This document shows positions 5,828 through 36,734 of a stretch of 43,002 nt of DNA, in pieces. Under the pieces are notes generated by a model. That model ran no database searches, was not told the DNA's origin, and saw nothing but the letters and a program-made list of their open reading frames with translations. A program made the position numbers and the translations under genes. Within the stretch, counting starts at the first letter, position 1, and each line of letters starts with the position of its first letter. Source of the DNA: a virus (taxonomy: Duplodnaviria; Heunggongvirae; Uroviricota; Caudoviricetes); IMG/VR virus record IMGVR_UViG_2740892012_000013, positions 1 to 43,002 of that record. The stretch is one strand, 5' to 3'.

Positions 5828-5930
5828 GTTAAATCTCCAGATAGTCGCAGCACCCGTTGCGCCGCATATCTGGTTATTCTATTACCTGGAAAACCACATA
5901 TGGATAGAAAGGCTGTAAATACGAATAGAT

Positions 5931-5947
5931 ATTACCTTTCAGGTAAT
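5931..5947. promoter_or_regulatory. Operator-like 17-bp palindrome ATTACCTTTCAGGTAAT (perfect)
   Basis: Perfect 7-bp inverted repeat with 3-bp spacer; one of about 12 related sites in the window; in the divergent region between tailspike and the 6023 gene. Confidence 0.6.
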
Positions 5948-5983
5948 TTGCAAAACGTGCTGGATAGCAAACAAATTATTTGC

Positions 5984-6003
5984 TACTGTATAAATATACA
6001 GTT
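5984..6003. promoter_or_regulatory. LexA (SOS) box candidate TACTGTATAAATATACAGTT
   Basis: CTGT-N8-ACAG with AT-rich spacer, about 17/20 to the E. coli consensus TACTGTATATATATACAGTA; ends 20 bp upstream of the ATG at 6023. Confidence 0.65.
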
Positions 6004-6022
6004 ATTGCATGGAGAAGATAAG

Positions 6023-6280
6023 ATGCAGCAGTATCACTATCCACTGGAAGACGGATTTACCGAAAGGATTCACACGCCGGGAGGCGTCAGGTCACTGGTG
6101 GAGGGATCGCACTTGATGAAATTACTCCGGGATCTCGATAAGGATGGATTTAATGTCGATGGCCCACTTGCCGAACTGACTGCACTGATTAACTACGTCA
6201 CCAGCTCACAGATGTCTATGCAGGATCTGCAAACACATCTCGACTATTGTGCCGAACAATTACGAAAACAAACCACATAA
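6023..6280 (+). CDS. Small protein homologous to the shared C-terminal domain of the two antirepressors (ORF6C-like); candidate SOS-controlled antirepressor module
   Basis: SD GGAGAAG before ATG; 85 aa ...RIHTPGGVRSLVEGSHLMKLLRDLDKDGFNVDGPLAELTALINYV... aligns with ...SLIHSPSGVLGLTENSLLMNLLNQLQEDGHDVSGAAAELTTMFCYIV... of 7749-8444 and 9710-10648. Confidence 0.5.
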   Translation: MQQYHYPLEDGFTERIHTPGGVRSLVEGSHLMKLLRDLDKDGFNVDGPLAELTALINYVTSSQMSMQDLQTHLDYCAEQLRKQTT

Positions 6281-6286
6281 AGAAAA

Positions 6287-6302
6287 GGCCGCGAAAGCGG
6301 CC
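6287..6302. terminator. Hairpin GGCCGCGAAAGCGGCC between convergent genes (bidirectional terminator candidate)
   Basis: Perfect 6-bp GC stem with GAAA loop just after the stop at 6280 and just before the stop at 6304; identical hairpin recurs at 9643-9658. Confidence 0.45.
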
Positions 6303-6303
6303 A

Positions 6304-6810
6304 TTAACAGTCGTAAAATTCTGGGTCCCACAAACTTGCATCGCGCGGCATGGATTCTAACTTTTTCAGCCGCAAAATTCTGTCACACTCGACAACTAAT
6401 TTTTGCTTCTGCTCGTCAATTTCTACTGTCTTATGCGCTGGTTCATCCCAATAATCCAGAAGGAAGGCATGGCGTTCAGATGTGACCAGATAAATCACAT
6501 ACACGTCACTGGTTGGGATCTTTTTATGCTTGTTAGTGGTCTTGTCTTTCTTCCCAGACGCCCAGTTTTTCCAGCATTGTTCCGTACCGCTCTCACCAAA
6601 CTTGTCAGTATAGTTTCCGATGTTTAAGTGAACGTGGCGTATGTGATATTCCAGCATCTCTTTCGGTGGATCTCGAAACAGAGTGTCCTTTCCGAAATCC
6701 TTATGATGACCGTAGCGCCAGTGATCTATGAACGCGTTTTTGATAGGTATTAGCTCAGGGTCCTTCCCAAAAATTCCAGGGTGAACCAACCCCTGGAATT
6801 TATTCGGCAT
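6304..6810 (-). CDS. YafO-family-like toxin candidate (paralog 1)
   Basis: From ATG at 6810: ...FIDHWRYGHHKDFGKDTLFRDP...HIRHVHLNIGNY...YVIYLV...AFLLDYWDEPAH; pattern matches my recollection of E. coli YafO (GRDALYD...RVAHIHL...HLVYC...WLLIAILKPEPH). Paralog of 8881-9393. Confidence 0.55.
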   Translation of the reverse strand: MPNKFQGLVHPGIFGKDPELIPIKNAFIDHWRYGHHKDFGKDTLFRDPPKEMLEYHIRHVHLNIGNYTDKFGESGTEQCWKNWASGKKDKTTNKHKKIPTSDVYVIYLVTSERHAFLLDYWDEPAHKTVEIDEQKQKLVVECDRILRLKKLESMPRDASLWDPEFYDC

Positions 6811-7327
6811 CGTCGTAGAGCTCCTGAGCCATGTCTTCAGCAGTGCGTGCAAACATCCTGCGCGAGATTGCATGGGATTTCTCTACGGACATCTTTGGGA
6901 CCTCATGCATAACAAGTTGATGAGTTTTCTCATCAACTTGAAGTGGCTTGTATAAACGTTGCCACCTTTCGTTAATTTTATCCTTAAAGCCAGCGAAACC
7001 ACTTTCCTGACTCTTGTATCCAAAATGAGATAAAGCCAAATTCCTTTCCATTTCATTCCTAATGTACTCAGCAAGGTTGCAGTGGAATACTTCCCCTTGT
7101 TTTTTTAGGCATGCTTCATGGTCTGTAACACTGTGACGGCTCTCATATAAGTAAATGCGATAGGAATTTTTATTATCCTCTTCTTCATAATTTCTAATCG
7201 CATCAGCAGTTGCCATAGCTGCAGCATAAGCGGCTGCTTCAATCACCATCTCTTGCTCTTTTTCTTTTTCAGGCCTTTTCAAGGCAAAGCGTCTATGCCT
7301 CATCGCTGTAACTCTCTTCGTGTTCAT
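6800..7327 (-). CDS. Hypothetical protein, upstream partner of YafO-like paralog 1 (candidate antitoxin/regulator)
   Basis: ATG at 7327 with SD GGGGGTG; 175 aa, acidic C-terminus; 3' end overlaps toxin-candidate start by 11 nt; no family recognised. Confidence 0.45.
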   Translation of the reverse strand: MNTKRVTAMRHRRFALKRPEKEKEQEMVIEAAAYAAAMATADAIRNYEEEDNKNSYRIYLYESRHSVTDHEACLKKQGEVFHCNLAEYIRNEMERNLALSHFGYKSQESGFAGFKDKINERWQRLYKPLQVDEKTHQLVMHEVPKMSVEKSHAISRRMFARTAEDMAQELYDDAE

Positions 7328-7338
7328 GGGCACCCCCA

Positions 7339-7355
7339 ACTACCTTTAGGGTAAA
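7339..7355. promoter_or_regulatory. Operator-like palindrome, imperfect (ACTACCTTTAGGGTAAA)
   Basis: Matches ATTACCT-N3-AGGTAAT at most positions; immediately upstream of the 7327 start. Confidence 0.4.
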
Positions 7356-7463
7356 CATTCTATCGAAAGTATACGCTCACTGGCAAAAAAATAGGCAGGT
7401 ATTTTCTGAAATGGGATCAATCAAACCACATAGGGTTGAAATGACGTGAGTTATGCATTTATC

Positions 7464-7480
7464 ATTACCTTTGCGGTAAA
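7464..7480. promoter_or_regulatory. Operator-like palindrome (ATTACCTTTGCGGTAAA)
   Basis: Left half-site perfect, right half 5/7; in the 7328-7748 divergent intergenic region. Confidence 0.45.
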
Positions 7481-7571
7481 TTTACATTGCACTCCTCTTG
7501 TGCCATAGTAATCGGGCACTGGCAAAATCCAGTGCCGGGATTGGCGTTCCGGATTACTAAAAGGCGCATTC

Positions 7572-7591
7572 ACCGCGCAAGCGGTTTTTTT
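7572..7591 (+). terminator. Intrinsic terminator-like hairpin inside the 5' intergenic region of the Bro-N gene
   Basis: ACCGC-GCAA-GCGGT stem-loop followed by TTTTTTT; preceded by a longer hairpin (GGCACTGG...CCAGTGCC at about 7515-7540). Confidence 0.5.
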
Positions 7592-7748
7592 ATGCGTATA
7601 GCACGGCCACATTCGTATTATGGTGGGCTGTGTGGGGGCACCGAAAGGTGCGCCGGGTCCTTTTAGCCGGTTACGCCAACCCTGCACAGTTCACCACCAA
7701 CCGATTGGCGTCGGTAGTGGTGATTAACCAGACTAAAAGGTAACCACT

Positions 7749-8444
7749 ATGACAGCTACAAAAAGCACGTCCATTTTTTCTTTCGAATCCCAAGCCGATA
7801 TACGAGTAATCGTCATAAATGGTGAGCCATGGTTTATCGCTTCAGATGTTTGTCGGGCTATAGGCATAGCAAACCATCGAGATGCTGTTCGAAAACTTGA
7901 TGATGATGAGAAGGGCGTCGCTTCAACCGACACCCCTGGCGGTGAGCAAGAATCGATCATCATCTCCGAGTCAGGCCTCTACACACTGATCCTCCGCTGC
8001 CGCGACGCAGTGACACCAGGCACTATCCCCTACCGCTTTCGTAAATGGGTTACAGGTGAGGTTCTTCCTCAGATCCGCCGCACCGGAAGTTACATTAAAA
8101 ACTCGCTCCCGCAGGAAGAACGCATAAAGATGGTTGCCGACCAGGTAGCCAACGCCACAGCATCAGCAGTGATGCAGGCAATGAAGATAGAGAACAAAAC
8201 CTACAGCGCCCCACTGAAGCCCGGCTACCGCAGTTTGATTCACTCGCCGTCTGGTGTTCTCGGCCTGACGGAGAACTCACTGCTGATGAATCTGCTGAAC
8301 CAGTTACAGGAAGACGGGCACGACGTATCGGGCGCGGCGGCGGAGCTGACCACCATGTTCTGCTACATCGTCGGTGTGAGCAAATGCCTGCGTGATATCC
8401 AGACCCACGCGGAGTACATCAACGACAAGGCAGGGTTCTTCTGA
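7749..8444 (+). CDS. Antirepressor with N-terminal Bro-N domain and shared C-terminal (ORF6C-like) domain
   Basis: N-terminus FSFESQADIRVIVINGEPWFIASDVCRAIGI...ESGLYTLILRC...PYRFRKWVTGEVLPQIRRTGSY is a classic Bro-N signature; C-terminal ~75 aa near-identical to that of 9710-10648. Confidence 0.75.
   Translation: MTATKSTSIFSFESQADIRVIVINGEPWFIASDVCRAIGIANHRDAVRKLDDDEKGVASTDTPGGEQESIIISESGLYTLILRCRDAVTPGTIPYRFRKWVTGEVLPQIRRTGSYIKNSLPQEERIKMVADQVANATASAVMQAMKIENKTYSAPLKPGYRSLIHSPSGVLGLTENSLLMNLLNQLQEDGHDVSGAAAELTTMFCYIVGVSKCLRDIQTHAEYINDKAGFF
8211..8444. repeat. Left arm of ~234-bp near-identical inverted repeat (3' end of Bro-N antirepressor gene)
   Basis: Reverse complement of 9710-9943 with only a handful of mismatches by eye. 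Confidence 0.8.
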
Positions 8445-22792: not shown

Positions 22793-22843
22793 CTTCTTTC
22801 TCCATTAGTGGGTCTGTTACGACCCACAGGTTAATAACAGGCG

Positions 22844-27163: not shown

Positions 27164-27240
27164 GTGGCATTAGCTCAGTTGGACAGAGCAACCGCCTTCT
27201 AAGCGGTTGGTCGCAGGTTCGAATCCTGCATGCCACGCCA
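27164..27240 (+). tRNA. tRNA-Arg (anticodon UCU, reads AGA)
   Basis: Folded by hand: 7-bp acceptor stem GTGGCAT/ATGCCAC, D-arm GCTC...GAGC, anticodon stem ACCGC/GCGGT with loop CTTCTAA, T-arm GCAGG-TTCGAAT-CCTGC, discriminator G, encoded CCA. Confidence 0.9.
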
Positions 27241-27903: not shown

Positions 27904-29379
27904 TTAAGCATACGGGTCATAATCTGTGATGGCCTTGCCTTGCTGGTTCTGCTGCCAGGGAAGTCGCAGGCGCTTCGACACCGGGAAAGCAAACGTCAGC
28001 AGCAGCGCATCGCCTTTACCCGGCGAACGCCCAAGTCGCTCTTTGATATCTTCCTTCGGTTCGATAACGATTTTACCGTCCACTCGAACTTTGTACTCTG
28101 CCGCCGACAGGTCGTCTGCAGTTTCCTGGTCATCCAGCATGCCGCCCAGCCTCAGCCATGTCTTACATGAGTTGAACATCTCCCCACGCTTGTTGAGCAT
28201 CTGCGGGTCAGTAGACGCGCCACCGAACGGAACAAGTTGCCATGTACGACCCCAGCCGTCACCGATTGACTTCAGACCAGTTCCGTAACCGAAGTCGATG
28301 AACACTGCGTCAGCCTGGTACTGGTCTTCAAAGTCAGCGATACGCTTCGCCATAATCAGATCGTCAGTGGTCTTGTTGCCAGTCCACAGCACCTTACTGT
28401 GCAGCCCCTGCCGCAGGTATATCACAGCGTCATCAACGCCTGAGTATGCCGGGTCAACGCCGATTATCACCGGAGCATGTGCAACCTGCGCAGCGGTGAC
28501 CACCCGTTTCATTGCCTCGTCAGTAAGTCCGGTAGGGATAAACTGCAATTCAGATGCATCCGGGAATATGCCGCGCACACGGATTTTAACGAAGTCGCTG
28601 TCTTCCCCGTAGTCATCAACCCATTTCTGCAACTGCTGTTTGTTGGTGCCTTCCACCGTCCGGCTGTCAATCTGCGCAGTTTTCCAGCGGTGTTTATATT
28701 TGCGGAAACATTCGCGGAAACGTCCGGTATTACGCGTCGGGTTTCCGAACGCCACCCAGATAATCTCAGTGTCTTCGTCCGTTAGCGCACCCTCGGCAAC
28801 TTCCCACACCAGATCCGCAATGTTCGACGCTTCATCGAATACCACGATGATGCGTTTGCGCTCGTTGTGTAGTCCGGCGAATGCCTCAGTGTTGTGCTCA
28901 GACCAGGGTATTGCGTCAGCTCGCCACCGCTTGTCGTGTCCAGGATCATTGCTGTACATCGCGGTAGCGGTACAGGTAAACCAGTCTTTCGTGATAGCAA
29001 GGTTCGACCACTTGATAATTTCCGGCCAGGTCTTCGTTCGTAGCTGGTTGTCGGTGTTGGCGGTCACCACAACCTTACAATCCTCGCAAGTGGACATGCC
29101 CCAGTTGATCAGCATTGAGATGAATGCGGATTTACCAATACCGTGACCCGAAGCGCGTGCCAGCATAAGCGGCTGATAGCGCGTCTCTGGATTCTGCAGG
29201 TGATCACGTATCTCTCGGAACGCATCAGCCTGCCACTGACGTGGACCGGTGGCATGTGCCAGTTCAGTCCCATCTTCCCCCCACGGGAACGCATAGAGGG
29301 CATAGCCAAGCGGATCGTGAGTGAACCCTGCAATATCCTCGATTAACTGCTCTTCAGGAGATAACGCTGTATCTGTCAC
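27904..29379 (-). CDS. Terminase large subunit
   Basis: 491 aa; GTG start overlapping TerS stop (GTGA); ATPase-like Walker A region (...ARASGHGIGKSAF...) and C-terminal nuclease-sized domain. Confidence 0.85.
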   Translation of the reverse strand: MTDTALSPEEQLIEDIAGFTHDPLGYALYAFPWGEDGTELAHATGPRQWQADAFREIRDHLQNPETRYQPLMLARASGHGIGKSAFISMLINWGMSTCEDCKVVVTANTDNQLRTKTWPEIIKWSNLAITKDWFTCTATAMYSNDPGHDKRWRADAIPWSEHNTEAFAGLHNERKRIIVVFDEASNIADLVWEVAEGALTDEDTEIIWVAFGNPTRNTGRFRECFRKYKHRWKTAQIDSRTVEGTNKQQLQKWVDDYGEDSDFVKIRVRGIFPDASELQFIPTGLTDEAMKRVVTAAQVAHAPVIIGVDPAYSGVDDAVIYLRQGLHSKVLWTGNKTTDDLIMAKRIADFEDQYQADAVFIDFGYGTGLKSIGDGWGRTWQLVPFGGASTDPQMLNKRGEMFNSCKTWLRLGGMLDDQETADDLSAAEYKVRVDGKIVIEPKEDIKERLGRSPGKGDALLLTFAFPVSKRLRLPWQQNQQGKAITDYDPYA

Positions 29380-30008
29380 TGATTACCATCCTGACGTTCT
29401 TTGAGTCGCTTCCTGGCTGCTGCTATGCGATCAGCAATTGTCACATTCACATTAACATCCAGACGTTCTTTGAATGCGTTGACATCAACATGCTTACCAA
29501 TCAGCTCAAGGTTCTTCACCTTGTCAGGCCATTTCACCTTCTTCAGGATATGCTCGACATCCTCAACAGAGAGATCCGCCTCGCCATTCTCTTTTTGCAG
29601 GGAAGCCTGGGTTGTCTTGATGGTAGCGATATCCATAGCACTGAGAGAGGTACGCCAGACCTTCGGCCATTCAGCGATCGGCTTCATCCCGCCGTCATCG
29701 TTCAGTATATCCAGCACGTCCATCTGGTCGATCTCCACCAGGCGCATGAGAACGTAATCAGCACTGACGCGCATTCGTTTGTTGCGCTCCTCCATCAACT
29801 CGGCAATCCGTTTTTGAATGCGTTCATCGCGCATCATGACACTTGCTTTAACTGCCGCTGTATTTGGGGAGAATCCTGCGTTAATCGCTGCCTGAGTCTG
29901 GTTTTCAGGCGTTTTGATGTATGACTGGCAATAAGCCTCCTGCATTGCTGTTAGTGGCTTAAATTGCGTTGATTTACGTTTATAGGTTTTAGGTTCAGCA
30001 GGCATCAT
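29376..30008 (-). CDS. Terminase small subunit
   Basis: From ATG at 30008 (SD GGTGG): ...KPLTAMQEAYCQSYIKTPENQTQAAINAGFSPNTAAVKA... matches TerS HTH-like motif; directly upstream of TerL. Confidence 0.7.
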   Translation of the reverse strand: MMPAEPKTYKRKSTQFKPLTAMQEAYCQSYIKTPENQTQAAINAGFSPNTAAVKASVMMRDERIQKRIAELMEERNKRMRVSADYVLMRLVEIDQMDVLDILNDDGGMKPIAEWPKVWRTSLSAMDIATIKTTQASLQKENGEADLSVEDVEHILKKVKWPDKVKNLELIGKHVDVNAFKERLDVNVNVTIADRIAAARKRLKERQDGNQ

Positions 30009-30015
30009 AACCACC

Positions 30016-30047
30016 GTGGTAATAGTTACCGTTGTGGTAATAGTACC
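30016..30047. repeat. Tandem direct repeat GTGGTAATAGT(T)ACC x2 just upstream of TerS start
   Basis: Copies at 30016-30030 and 30034-30047; each contains GGTAAT...ACC (operator half-sites in inverted order). Confidence 0.5.
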
Positions 30048-30050
30048 ATG

Positions 30051-30077
30051 CAAAATAAAGCCGCCATAGTTGGCGGC
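30051..30077 (-). terminator. Intrinsic terminator between nin-like block and TerS (minus strand)
   Basis: On the minus strand GCCGCC-AACTAT-GGCGGC followed by TTTATTTTG. Confidence 0.55.
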
Positions 30078-30082
30078 AGTAT

Positions 30083-30295
30083 TCAAAGTCCATCAAATTC
30101 ATCGTAAAAACTCTCGTCAAGATACCATTCCCATTTACCGCGAATGAAAATTACATCCTCGCCGCAAGGGTGCTGACTGTCGATAACTATATCCCTCCTG
30201 GCGCAACCATACTTATTCATGAGAAATTTAACCTCTTTCGGAAAATTTGCTGAGTTATCTCTCATATCTTCAAGGTCGTAGCGTATTTTTGGCAT
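30083..30295 (-). CDS. Hypothetical small protein
   Basis: ATG at 30295 with SD AAGGTG; 70 aa. Confidence 0.45.
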   Translation of the reverse strand: MPKIRYDLEDMRDNSANFPKEVKFLMNKYGCARRDIVIDSQHPCGEDVIFIRGKWEWYLDESFYDEFDGL

Positions 30296-36403: not shown

Positions 36404-36634
36404 TCATGAGTAGAAGAAGTATGCCAGTTCCGCTTTTGAGCGCAGCCATTGTCTTGTTTTACATGCTTTAAAAAGCCCATTCATCAATACCTTACCTGGC
36501 ATTTTGCGCTTACCTGTTAAGTGAGTCTGGATATAGTGACTCGTCGTTCCGGCTTCCTGTGCGAAGGCTTCACGCTCATCCGGAGTAAGTGCAAGCCAGT
36601 GCTTTTTGAAATCGAAATGTCCGTTATCGCTCAT
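36404..36634 (-). CDS. Cro-like HTH DNA-binding protein
   Basis: 76 aa; HTH-like segment EAFAQEAGTTSHYIQTHLTGKR; first gene leftward from the divergent operator region. Confidence 0.5.
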   Translation of the reverse strand: MSDNGHFDFKKHWLALTPDEREAFAQEAGTTSHYIQTHLTGKRKMPGKVLMNGLFKACKTRQWLRSKAELAYFFYS

Positions 36635-36679
36635 AGCTATTGCCTGATATTTATTTCAGATAATAAATATTCACCCATA

Positions 36680-36734
36680 AGGTAACAAAAATCAAGGATA
36701 GTTACCTATGGGGTGCATTTACCTGTTGGGTAAT
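36680..36734. promoter_or_regulatory. Divergent immunity-region operators (clustered half-sites)
   Basis: AGGTAAC (36680-36686), GTTACCTATGGGGTGCA (36701-36717) and TTTACCTGTTGGGTAAT (36718-36734) in the 154-bp gap between Cro-like and repressor genes. Confidence 0.55.

Follow-up and report, generated by a model that had tools for sequence, protein, structure and literature searches.

The 85-amino-acid (aa) open reading frame (ORF) at positions 6023 to 6280 is, judging from its sequence, the ant gene of a phiV10/epsilon15-type prophage and an orthologue of the small antirepressor of phage SPC32H. We consider it very likely (probability about 0.9) that this gene works like the SPC32H switch, being held by LexA and released by the SOS response, with Ant then removing an uncleaved repressor, Rep, from its operators. 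This mechanism is preferred because Ant and Rep are both homologous to their SPC32H counterparts, because the LexA box upstream of ant is strong, conserved in position and unique in the window (the whole stretch of 43,002 nucleotides that was analysed), and because Rep matches no Peptidase_S24 domain in Pfam. Induction through an SOS-derepressed antirepressor module had been proposed in the original prediction, which is strengthened by the presence of homologues of both SPC32H partners and of a box at the homologous position. The SPC32H antirepression switch is reportedly described in Kim & Ryu 2013 (J Virol 87:11775) and Kim et al. 2016 (PNAS 113:E2480). The switch itself is thus already known, and the window holds an E. 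coli phiV10-type copy of the SPC32H Ant/Rep system. The features on which the argument rests are as follows:

5932–5946, no strand assigned: operator-like palindrome TTACCTTTCAGGTAA in the tailspike–ant intergenic region, some 38 bp before the LexA box
5961–5989, plus strand: candidate ant promoter picked by eye, TGGATA (5961–5966), a 17-bp spacer and TACTGT (5984–5989)
5984–6003, no strand assigned: LexA (SOS) box TACTGTATAAATATACAGTT, identified by its sequence, its score of 26.9 bits with a position weight matrix (PWM) and its position, which is kept in 11 relatives
6011–6016, plus strand: Shine-Dalgarno sequence GGAGAA, 6 nt before the ATG, with GGAG invariant in the 11-phage alignment
6023–6280, plus strand: ant, 85-aa small antirepressor of the SPC32H Ant family (PHROG 450), by homology to PDB 5D50 chain E
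6287–6302, no strand assigned: GC-rich hairpin GGCCGCGAAAGCGGCC, directly after the ant stop codon
36789–37373, plus strand: rep, 194-aa prophage repressor of the SPC32H Rep type and presumed target of Ant, by homology to PDB 5D50 chain A

Prophage setting and identity of ant

The whole stretch can be assigned to the epsilon15/phiV10-type (Uetakevirus) prophages, and the region shares 96–99% DNA identity with phiV10, TL-2011b and other E. coli Uetakevirus (epsilon15-like) phages. A leftward tailspike gene followed by a rightward ant is the gene order found in SPC32H, epsilon15, phiV10, Tyrion, BUCT554 and Klebsiella relatives, and this divergent tailspike–ant arrangement in a Uetakevirus genome is the one expected of an SPC32H-type Ant. 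The window resembles SPC32H in that ant lies beside the tailspike gene, a LexA box occupies the homologous position, the same TTACC-N5-GGTAA palindrome stands upstream of ant, and Rep belongs to the same family. The two differ in their hosts (E. coli here, Salmonella in SPC32H), in the class of Rep, which in the window is diverged and phiV10-like, and in an accessory segment of about 5.8 kb, located between ant and the structural genes, that is absent from SPC32H and encodes, among others, two larger Ant-domain proteins. Elsewhere in the window, a tRNA gene (27164–27237, plus strand; Rfam, 73 bits) runs against the direction of the listed ORFs around it.

A search of PDB with the 85-aa protein gave 5D50 chain E ("Anti-repressor protein", 86 aa) as the only match, with residues 2–85 aligned on residues 3–86 of the chain (phmmer, E = 1.3e-47). 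Together with 5D4Z, this entry belongs to the SPC32H Ant/Rep switch (Kim & Ryu 2013; Kim et al. 2016). Over its full length the window's Ant is 87–88% identical to SPC32H Ant; it matches PHROG 450 at E = 1.4e-47, and an orthologue with 88% identity to the window's ORF is labelled "ant: anti-repressor protein" in GenBank record KC911856. The gene runs from an ATG at 6023 to a stop codon at 6278–6280. All aligned orthologues of Ant are 85–86 aa long, matches in 35 of 35 phage records cover 95% or more of the protein, and ant DNA was found at the same locus in 529 of 5,426 complete E. coli genomes. A longer ORF at 5900–6280 (126 aa), which would run through both the LexA box and the operator, was rejected, in that its upstream part shows no coding conservation, with indels in the 11-phage alignment, and that the orthologues and the crystallised protein are 85–86 aa in length. 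The hairpin behind ant is read mainly as the terminator of the convergent gene 6873→6304, because its T-run lies on the minus strand.

The 85-aa protein carries neither Bro-N nor P22_AR_N and consists of the C-terminal module only. It had been put forward as a minimal domain-only protein, and the domain-only form is indeed real, but it is not a novel reduced form and corresponds instead to the crystallised 86-aa prototype. We see no novelty in the form, because the 86-aa Ant of SPC32H is the version that has been functionally characterised, as described in PMC9638917, and because a length of 85–86 aa is kept across the aligned orthologues. This prototype, together with the 35 phage records and the 529 genomes, is also why we regard the system as a known one. 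The annotation of the family is less advanced: neither Pfam nor NCBIfam has a model for Ant, PHROG 450 carries the label "unknown function", and "hypothetical protein" is the label in most phage records and in 12 of 12 RefSeq E. coli matches listed. This annotation gap persists despite a crystal structure and functional data, and the practical value of the present result therefore lies in annotation, as recognising ant would make the SOS-inducibility of phiV10-type prophages predictable from sequence in E. coli strains, among them O157 and O103.

The LexA box and the predicted Rep operators

The 20-bp consensus of the E. coli LexA box is TACTGTATATATATACAGTA. TACTGTATAAATATACAGTT agrees with it at 18 of 20 positions, and both arms, CTGTAT and ATACAG, are perfect, which upholds the expectation of a textbook CTGT-N8-ACAG SOS box immediately before the 85-aa ORF. 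The site has the properties of an E. coli LexA operator, namely the CTGT-N8-ACAG frame, an AT-rich spacer and a score in the range of validated sites. With a PWM trained on about 29 E. coli SOS boxes, it scored 26.9 bits, above all of the training boxes (12.4–25.9 bits). The second-best site in the 43-kb stretch scored 10.6 bits, and the best site per shuffle in 50 shuffles of the window averaged 11.8 bits with a maximum of 16.9 bits, about 10 bits lower than the box. Given these margins over both the next-best site and the shuffles, no other site in the 43 kb is a credible SOS box. The bare motif CTGT-N8-ACAG occurs three times in the window (0.64 expected); the occurrences at 22814 and 27356 were rejected as SOS boxes, as their scores of at most 10.4 bits are at chance level.

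The box ends 19 nt before the ATG of ant and lies 157 bp from the start of the tailspike gene. An alignment of the tailspike–ant intergenic region of 11 phages placed an SOS box in identical columns in all 11, with the arms kept and the spacer variable; ATGT replaces CTGT in the left arm of the box in the Klebsiella phages. The window's box aligns column for column with that of SPC32H. In the aligned ant region, SPC32H and SPC32N are one base apart, the ACAG arm of SPC32H being AAAG in SPC32N at the position of C5999 of the window. According to Kim and Ryu, the genomes of these two phages are said to differ by only two nucleotides, and one of the changes, in the LexA site overlapping the ant promoter, reportedly results in constitutive ant and a lytic phage. 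Our alignment agrees with this account.

No consensus sigma-70 promoter was detected before ant by a simple scan. By eye, TGGATA and TACTGT can be proposed as promoter hexamers, both of which are kept across the 11-phage alignment, and the candidate –10 (TACTGT) would then overlap the left arm of the LexA box.

A second element of the region is the TTACC-N5-GGTAA palindrome, of which the window contains 14 copies when one mismatch is allowed (0.73 expected):

5932, 7340, 7465, 8511, 26827, 30008 and 30026, no strand assigned: 15-bp TTACC-N5-GGTAA sites
34326, 34388, 36334, 36671, 36719, 37431 and 37493, no strand assigned: 15-bp TTACC-N5-GGTAA sites
36671–36733, no strand assigned: the pair of operator-like palindromes that lies between rep and its leftward, divergent neighbour 36404–36634

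Twelve of the 14 sites are intergenic, and the remaining two (30008 and 30026) lie inside the listed ORF 29376–30086. The sites flank rep and the early operons. The palindrome is probably the Rep operator, because the motif coincides with the protein_bind features annotated as 'repressor; lysogeny' in the epsilon15 record. The site at 5932 is present at the same position in 10 of 11 aligned relatives and is degenerate, with a GGTGA arm, in phiV10 and TL-2011b. It could control the tailspike promoter or provide a second control on ant.

Rep and the proposed switch

The product of 36789–37373 aligned over residues 1–190 with PDB 5D50 chain A (E = 4e-42). It had been expected to lack LexA-like autocleavage, and Pfam supports this, in that only HTH domains (HTH_3) were matched, with no Peptidase_S24 at E ≤ 0.1. 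The same genome as ant therefore encodes a Rep of the DBD-MDD-CAD type with no autocleavage domain. This Rep shares 100% identity with the phiV10 repressor and 41.8% with SPC32H Rep. The identity to SPC32H is distributed as follows:

Rep overall: 42%
Rep N-terminal DNA-binding domain: 53%
Rep C-terminal half: 38%
Rep last 45 alignment columns: 47%

Two classes of Rep can be distinguished among the relatives, one from E. coli/Enterobacter and one from Salmonella/Klebsiella. The C-terminal signature YD..Y..LP..EK.KI..[FY]I.F..QN is common to both classes and is retained in the window, where Tyr and Phe occupy the columns of SPC32H Phe187 and Phe190.

The SPC32H-type switch is summarised in PMC7380047 (citing Kim & Ryu 2013) as LexA self-cleavage followed by synthesis of an Ant that inhibits the repressor. 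The Rep of SPC32H, which is described as binding DNA as a tetramer, is composed of three domains, with DNA binding at the N-terminus, dimerisation in the middle and CAD/TetDloop at the C-terminus (PMC9986798). According to the same source, CAD/TetDloop both tetramerises Rep, via Phe187 and Phe190, and binds Ant, and for SPC32H alone, tetrameric Ant is described as binding to this domain and detaching the Rep tetramer from DNA (PMC9638917, PMC9986798).

We propose that the window's genes follow the same course. In a lysogen, host LexA would occupy the box at 5984–6003, which overlaps or abuts the ant promoter, and ant would be silent; upon DNA damage, active RecA would lead to self-cleavage of LexA, and ant would be transcribed. 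As in SPC32H, the Ant tetramer would then bind the C-terminal tetramerisation/Ant-binding domain of Rep (36789–37373) and split the Rep tetramer into two dimers with a poor hold on the operators. The TTACC-N5-GGTAA operators would thereby be freed and the lytic genes turned on, with Rep itself staying uncleaved. In this scheme we infer the LexA occupancy, the exact promoter and the physical contact between Ant and a phiV10-type Rep. Conservation of the Ant–Rep interface is likewise an assumption, because Rep is only 42% identical to its SPC32H counterpart overall and 38% in the C-terminal half, as compared with 87% for Ant. Faced with strongly diverged Rep C-terminal domains, a near-invariant Ant would either read a small conserved surface of Rep or be broadly cross-reactive.

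This mismatch is the main ground for a different reading, in which the small Ant is SOS-controlled but is directed mainly at co-resident Uetakevirus-type repressors in trans, or needs the other Ant-domain proteins in order to act on its own Rep. Besides the contrast between Ant and the Ant-binding half of Rep, it could draw on the observation that Rep classes and Ant similarities among the relatives do not run in parallel, and on the trans-acting antirepressors documented for Gifsy/Fels prophages in PMC7380047 (see also PMC3121763). Nevertheless, we hold it to be unlikely, as Ant and Rep of this family occur together in every relative examined and the C-terminal motif of Rep is kept across both Rep classes; moreover, an action on other repressors would not exclude one on the resident Rep.

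Even less probable, in our estimate, is that the palindrome at 5984–6003 is not the operative LexA site for ant, being instead involved in tailspike regulation or a chance AT-rich palindrome, with ant placed under Rep through TTACC-N5-GGTAA. A Rep-type operator does stand 38 bp upstream of the box, and the simple scan returned no consensus promoter, but a chance origin is difficult to reconcile with a score that exceeds those of all training boxes and lies about 10 bits over the best of 50 shuffles, or with arms that are conserved while the spacer varies. The box is also 19 nt from ant as opposed to 157 bp from the tailspike start, and the sole SPC32H/SPC32N difference in the aligned ant region, the change reported to make ant constitutive, falls inside it. 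As for the ORF being a relic without function, derived from a full-length antirepressor (Bro-N or P22-type) by loss of the N-terminal domain, which its homology within the window to only the C-terminal domain of two larger proteins might suggest, this is effectively refuted by conservation: the uniform orthologue length, the near-complete matches in phage records and the spread in E. coli genomes all speak against decay, as do its own conserved Shine-Dalgarno sequence and start codon and the existence of the 86-aa form as a crystallised and functionally characterised protein. The SPC32H-type switch thus remains the preferred reading.

The C-terminal part of the phage 186 antirepressor Tum is DinI-like. 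Pfam and NCBIfam scans of the 85-aa protein gave no significant family match and no DinI, and a sub-threshold match to DUF724 was taken as noise. Similarly, Pfam, NCBIfam and PDB profile/sequence searches found no sequence relation to either 186 Tum or the Gifsy antirepressors. The parallel with these phages that had been drawn in the original prediction is consequently sound for the shared logic, since PMC7380047 describes 186 Tum and the GfoA/GfhA of Gifsy-1/Gifsy-3 as LexA-repressed antirepressors that bind and inactivate a non-cleavable repressor, but by sequence family the protein belongs with SPC32H Ant. The likeness to Tum and Gifsy thus appears to be one of function and not of sequence family. 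P22 Ant (immI: mnt-arc-ant, sar RNA) and P1/P7 Ant (c4 antisense RNA) are also antirepressors that bind a prophage repressor. Unlike the 85-aa Ant, however, Ants of the P22 and P1 types are 230–310 aa long with Bro-N or P22_AR_N N-termini, and have antisense RNAs and Arc/Mnt-like proteins, rather than LexA, as their regulators.

Larger Ant-domain proteins and accessory genes

P22-like and P1-like modules are present elsewhere in the window, each encoding a protein whose C-terminal domain is a homologue of the small Ant. Their parts are as follows:

7516–7591, upstream of 7749–8444: isrK match (Rfam, 72 bits)
7616–7701, upstream of 7749–8444: C4 antisense RNA match (Rfam, 78 bits)
7749–8444, plus strand: Bro-N and Ant-domain protein, 231 aa (Pfam Bro-N)
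9710–10648, minus strand: P22_AR_N and Ant-domain protein, 312 aa (Pfam P22_AR_N)
10650–10717, plus strand: sar antisense-RNA match (45 bits, just above the gathering score)
10888→10721, minus strand: small 55-aa ORF upstream of 9710–10648, Arc-like by eye and position
10979–11440, plus strand: divergent Arc-domain protein

The 85-aa ORF had been recognised as homologous to the C-terminal domain common to two larger antirepressors, and this was reproduced by tblastn with the small Ant (E = 1e-13 against 7749–8444 and 5e-14 against 9710–10648), the small Ant aligning over its whole length with the last ~82 residues of both proteins at 37–44% identity. The Ant-like domains of the two large proteins (8187–8441, plus strand, and 9710–9964, minus strand) are 93% identical to each other but share only 37–39% identity with the small Ant. 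This contrast suggests a recent exchange of the domain between the two large genes, whose Ant domains may possibly differ from the small Ant in target specificity.

In the PWM scan of the window, no SOS box was found upstream of 7749–8444 or 9710–10648. Two operator-like sites (7340 and 7465) precede 7749–8444, and the stretch 7340–8444, with its isrK and C4 matches, looks like an antisense-controlled antirepressor module of the P1/P7 immI type. In the other module, the sar match is antisense to the junction of the small ORF and the 312-aa antirepressor gene, and Pfam gave no match for the 55-aa ORF; as a whole, 9710–11440 resembles a P22 immI-like module. Each of the three Ant-domain genes may have a classical circuit of its own: the LexA box for the small Ant; Rep operators with isrK/C4 for the Bro-N fusion; and the Arc-like ORF with the Arc-domain protein and sar for the P22_AR_N fusion.

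Three differently wired Ant-domain genes, together with the mismatch in conservation between Ant and Rep, are what remains of interest in this prophage. One speculation, to which we attach rather low odds, is that all three Ant-domain proteins act on a single Rep C-terminal domain and would thereby integrate inputs from the SOS response, from positive feedback on loss of Rep and from superinfection/anti-immunity. In addition, with the small Ant 87% kept and the target domain of Rep 38%, the small Ant could be a broad-specificity inducer that cross-activates heteroimmune Uetakevirus prophages.

Two paralogous two-gene cassettes (6304–7339, minus strand, and 8568–9393, plus strand) also belong to the accessory segment that separates ant from the structural genes. 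Each consists of a small ORF (PHROG 9503 or 5933) followed by a YafO-like PHROG 1651 protein in which an FGKD...HxHL motif is present. A weak match to YafO_toxin (PF13957, E = 1e-3, below the cutoff) was obtained for one of these two PHROG 1651 proteins, and the cassettes may be toxin–antitoxin-like accessory genes.
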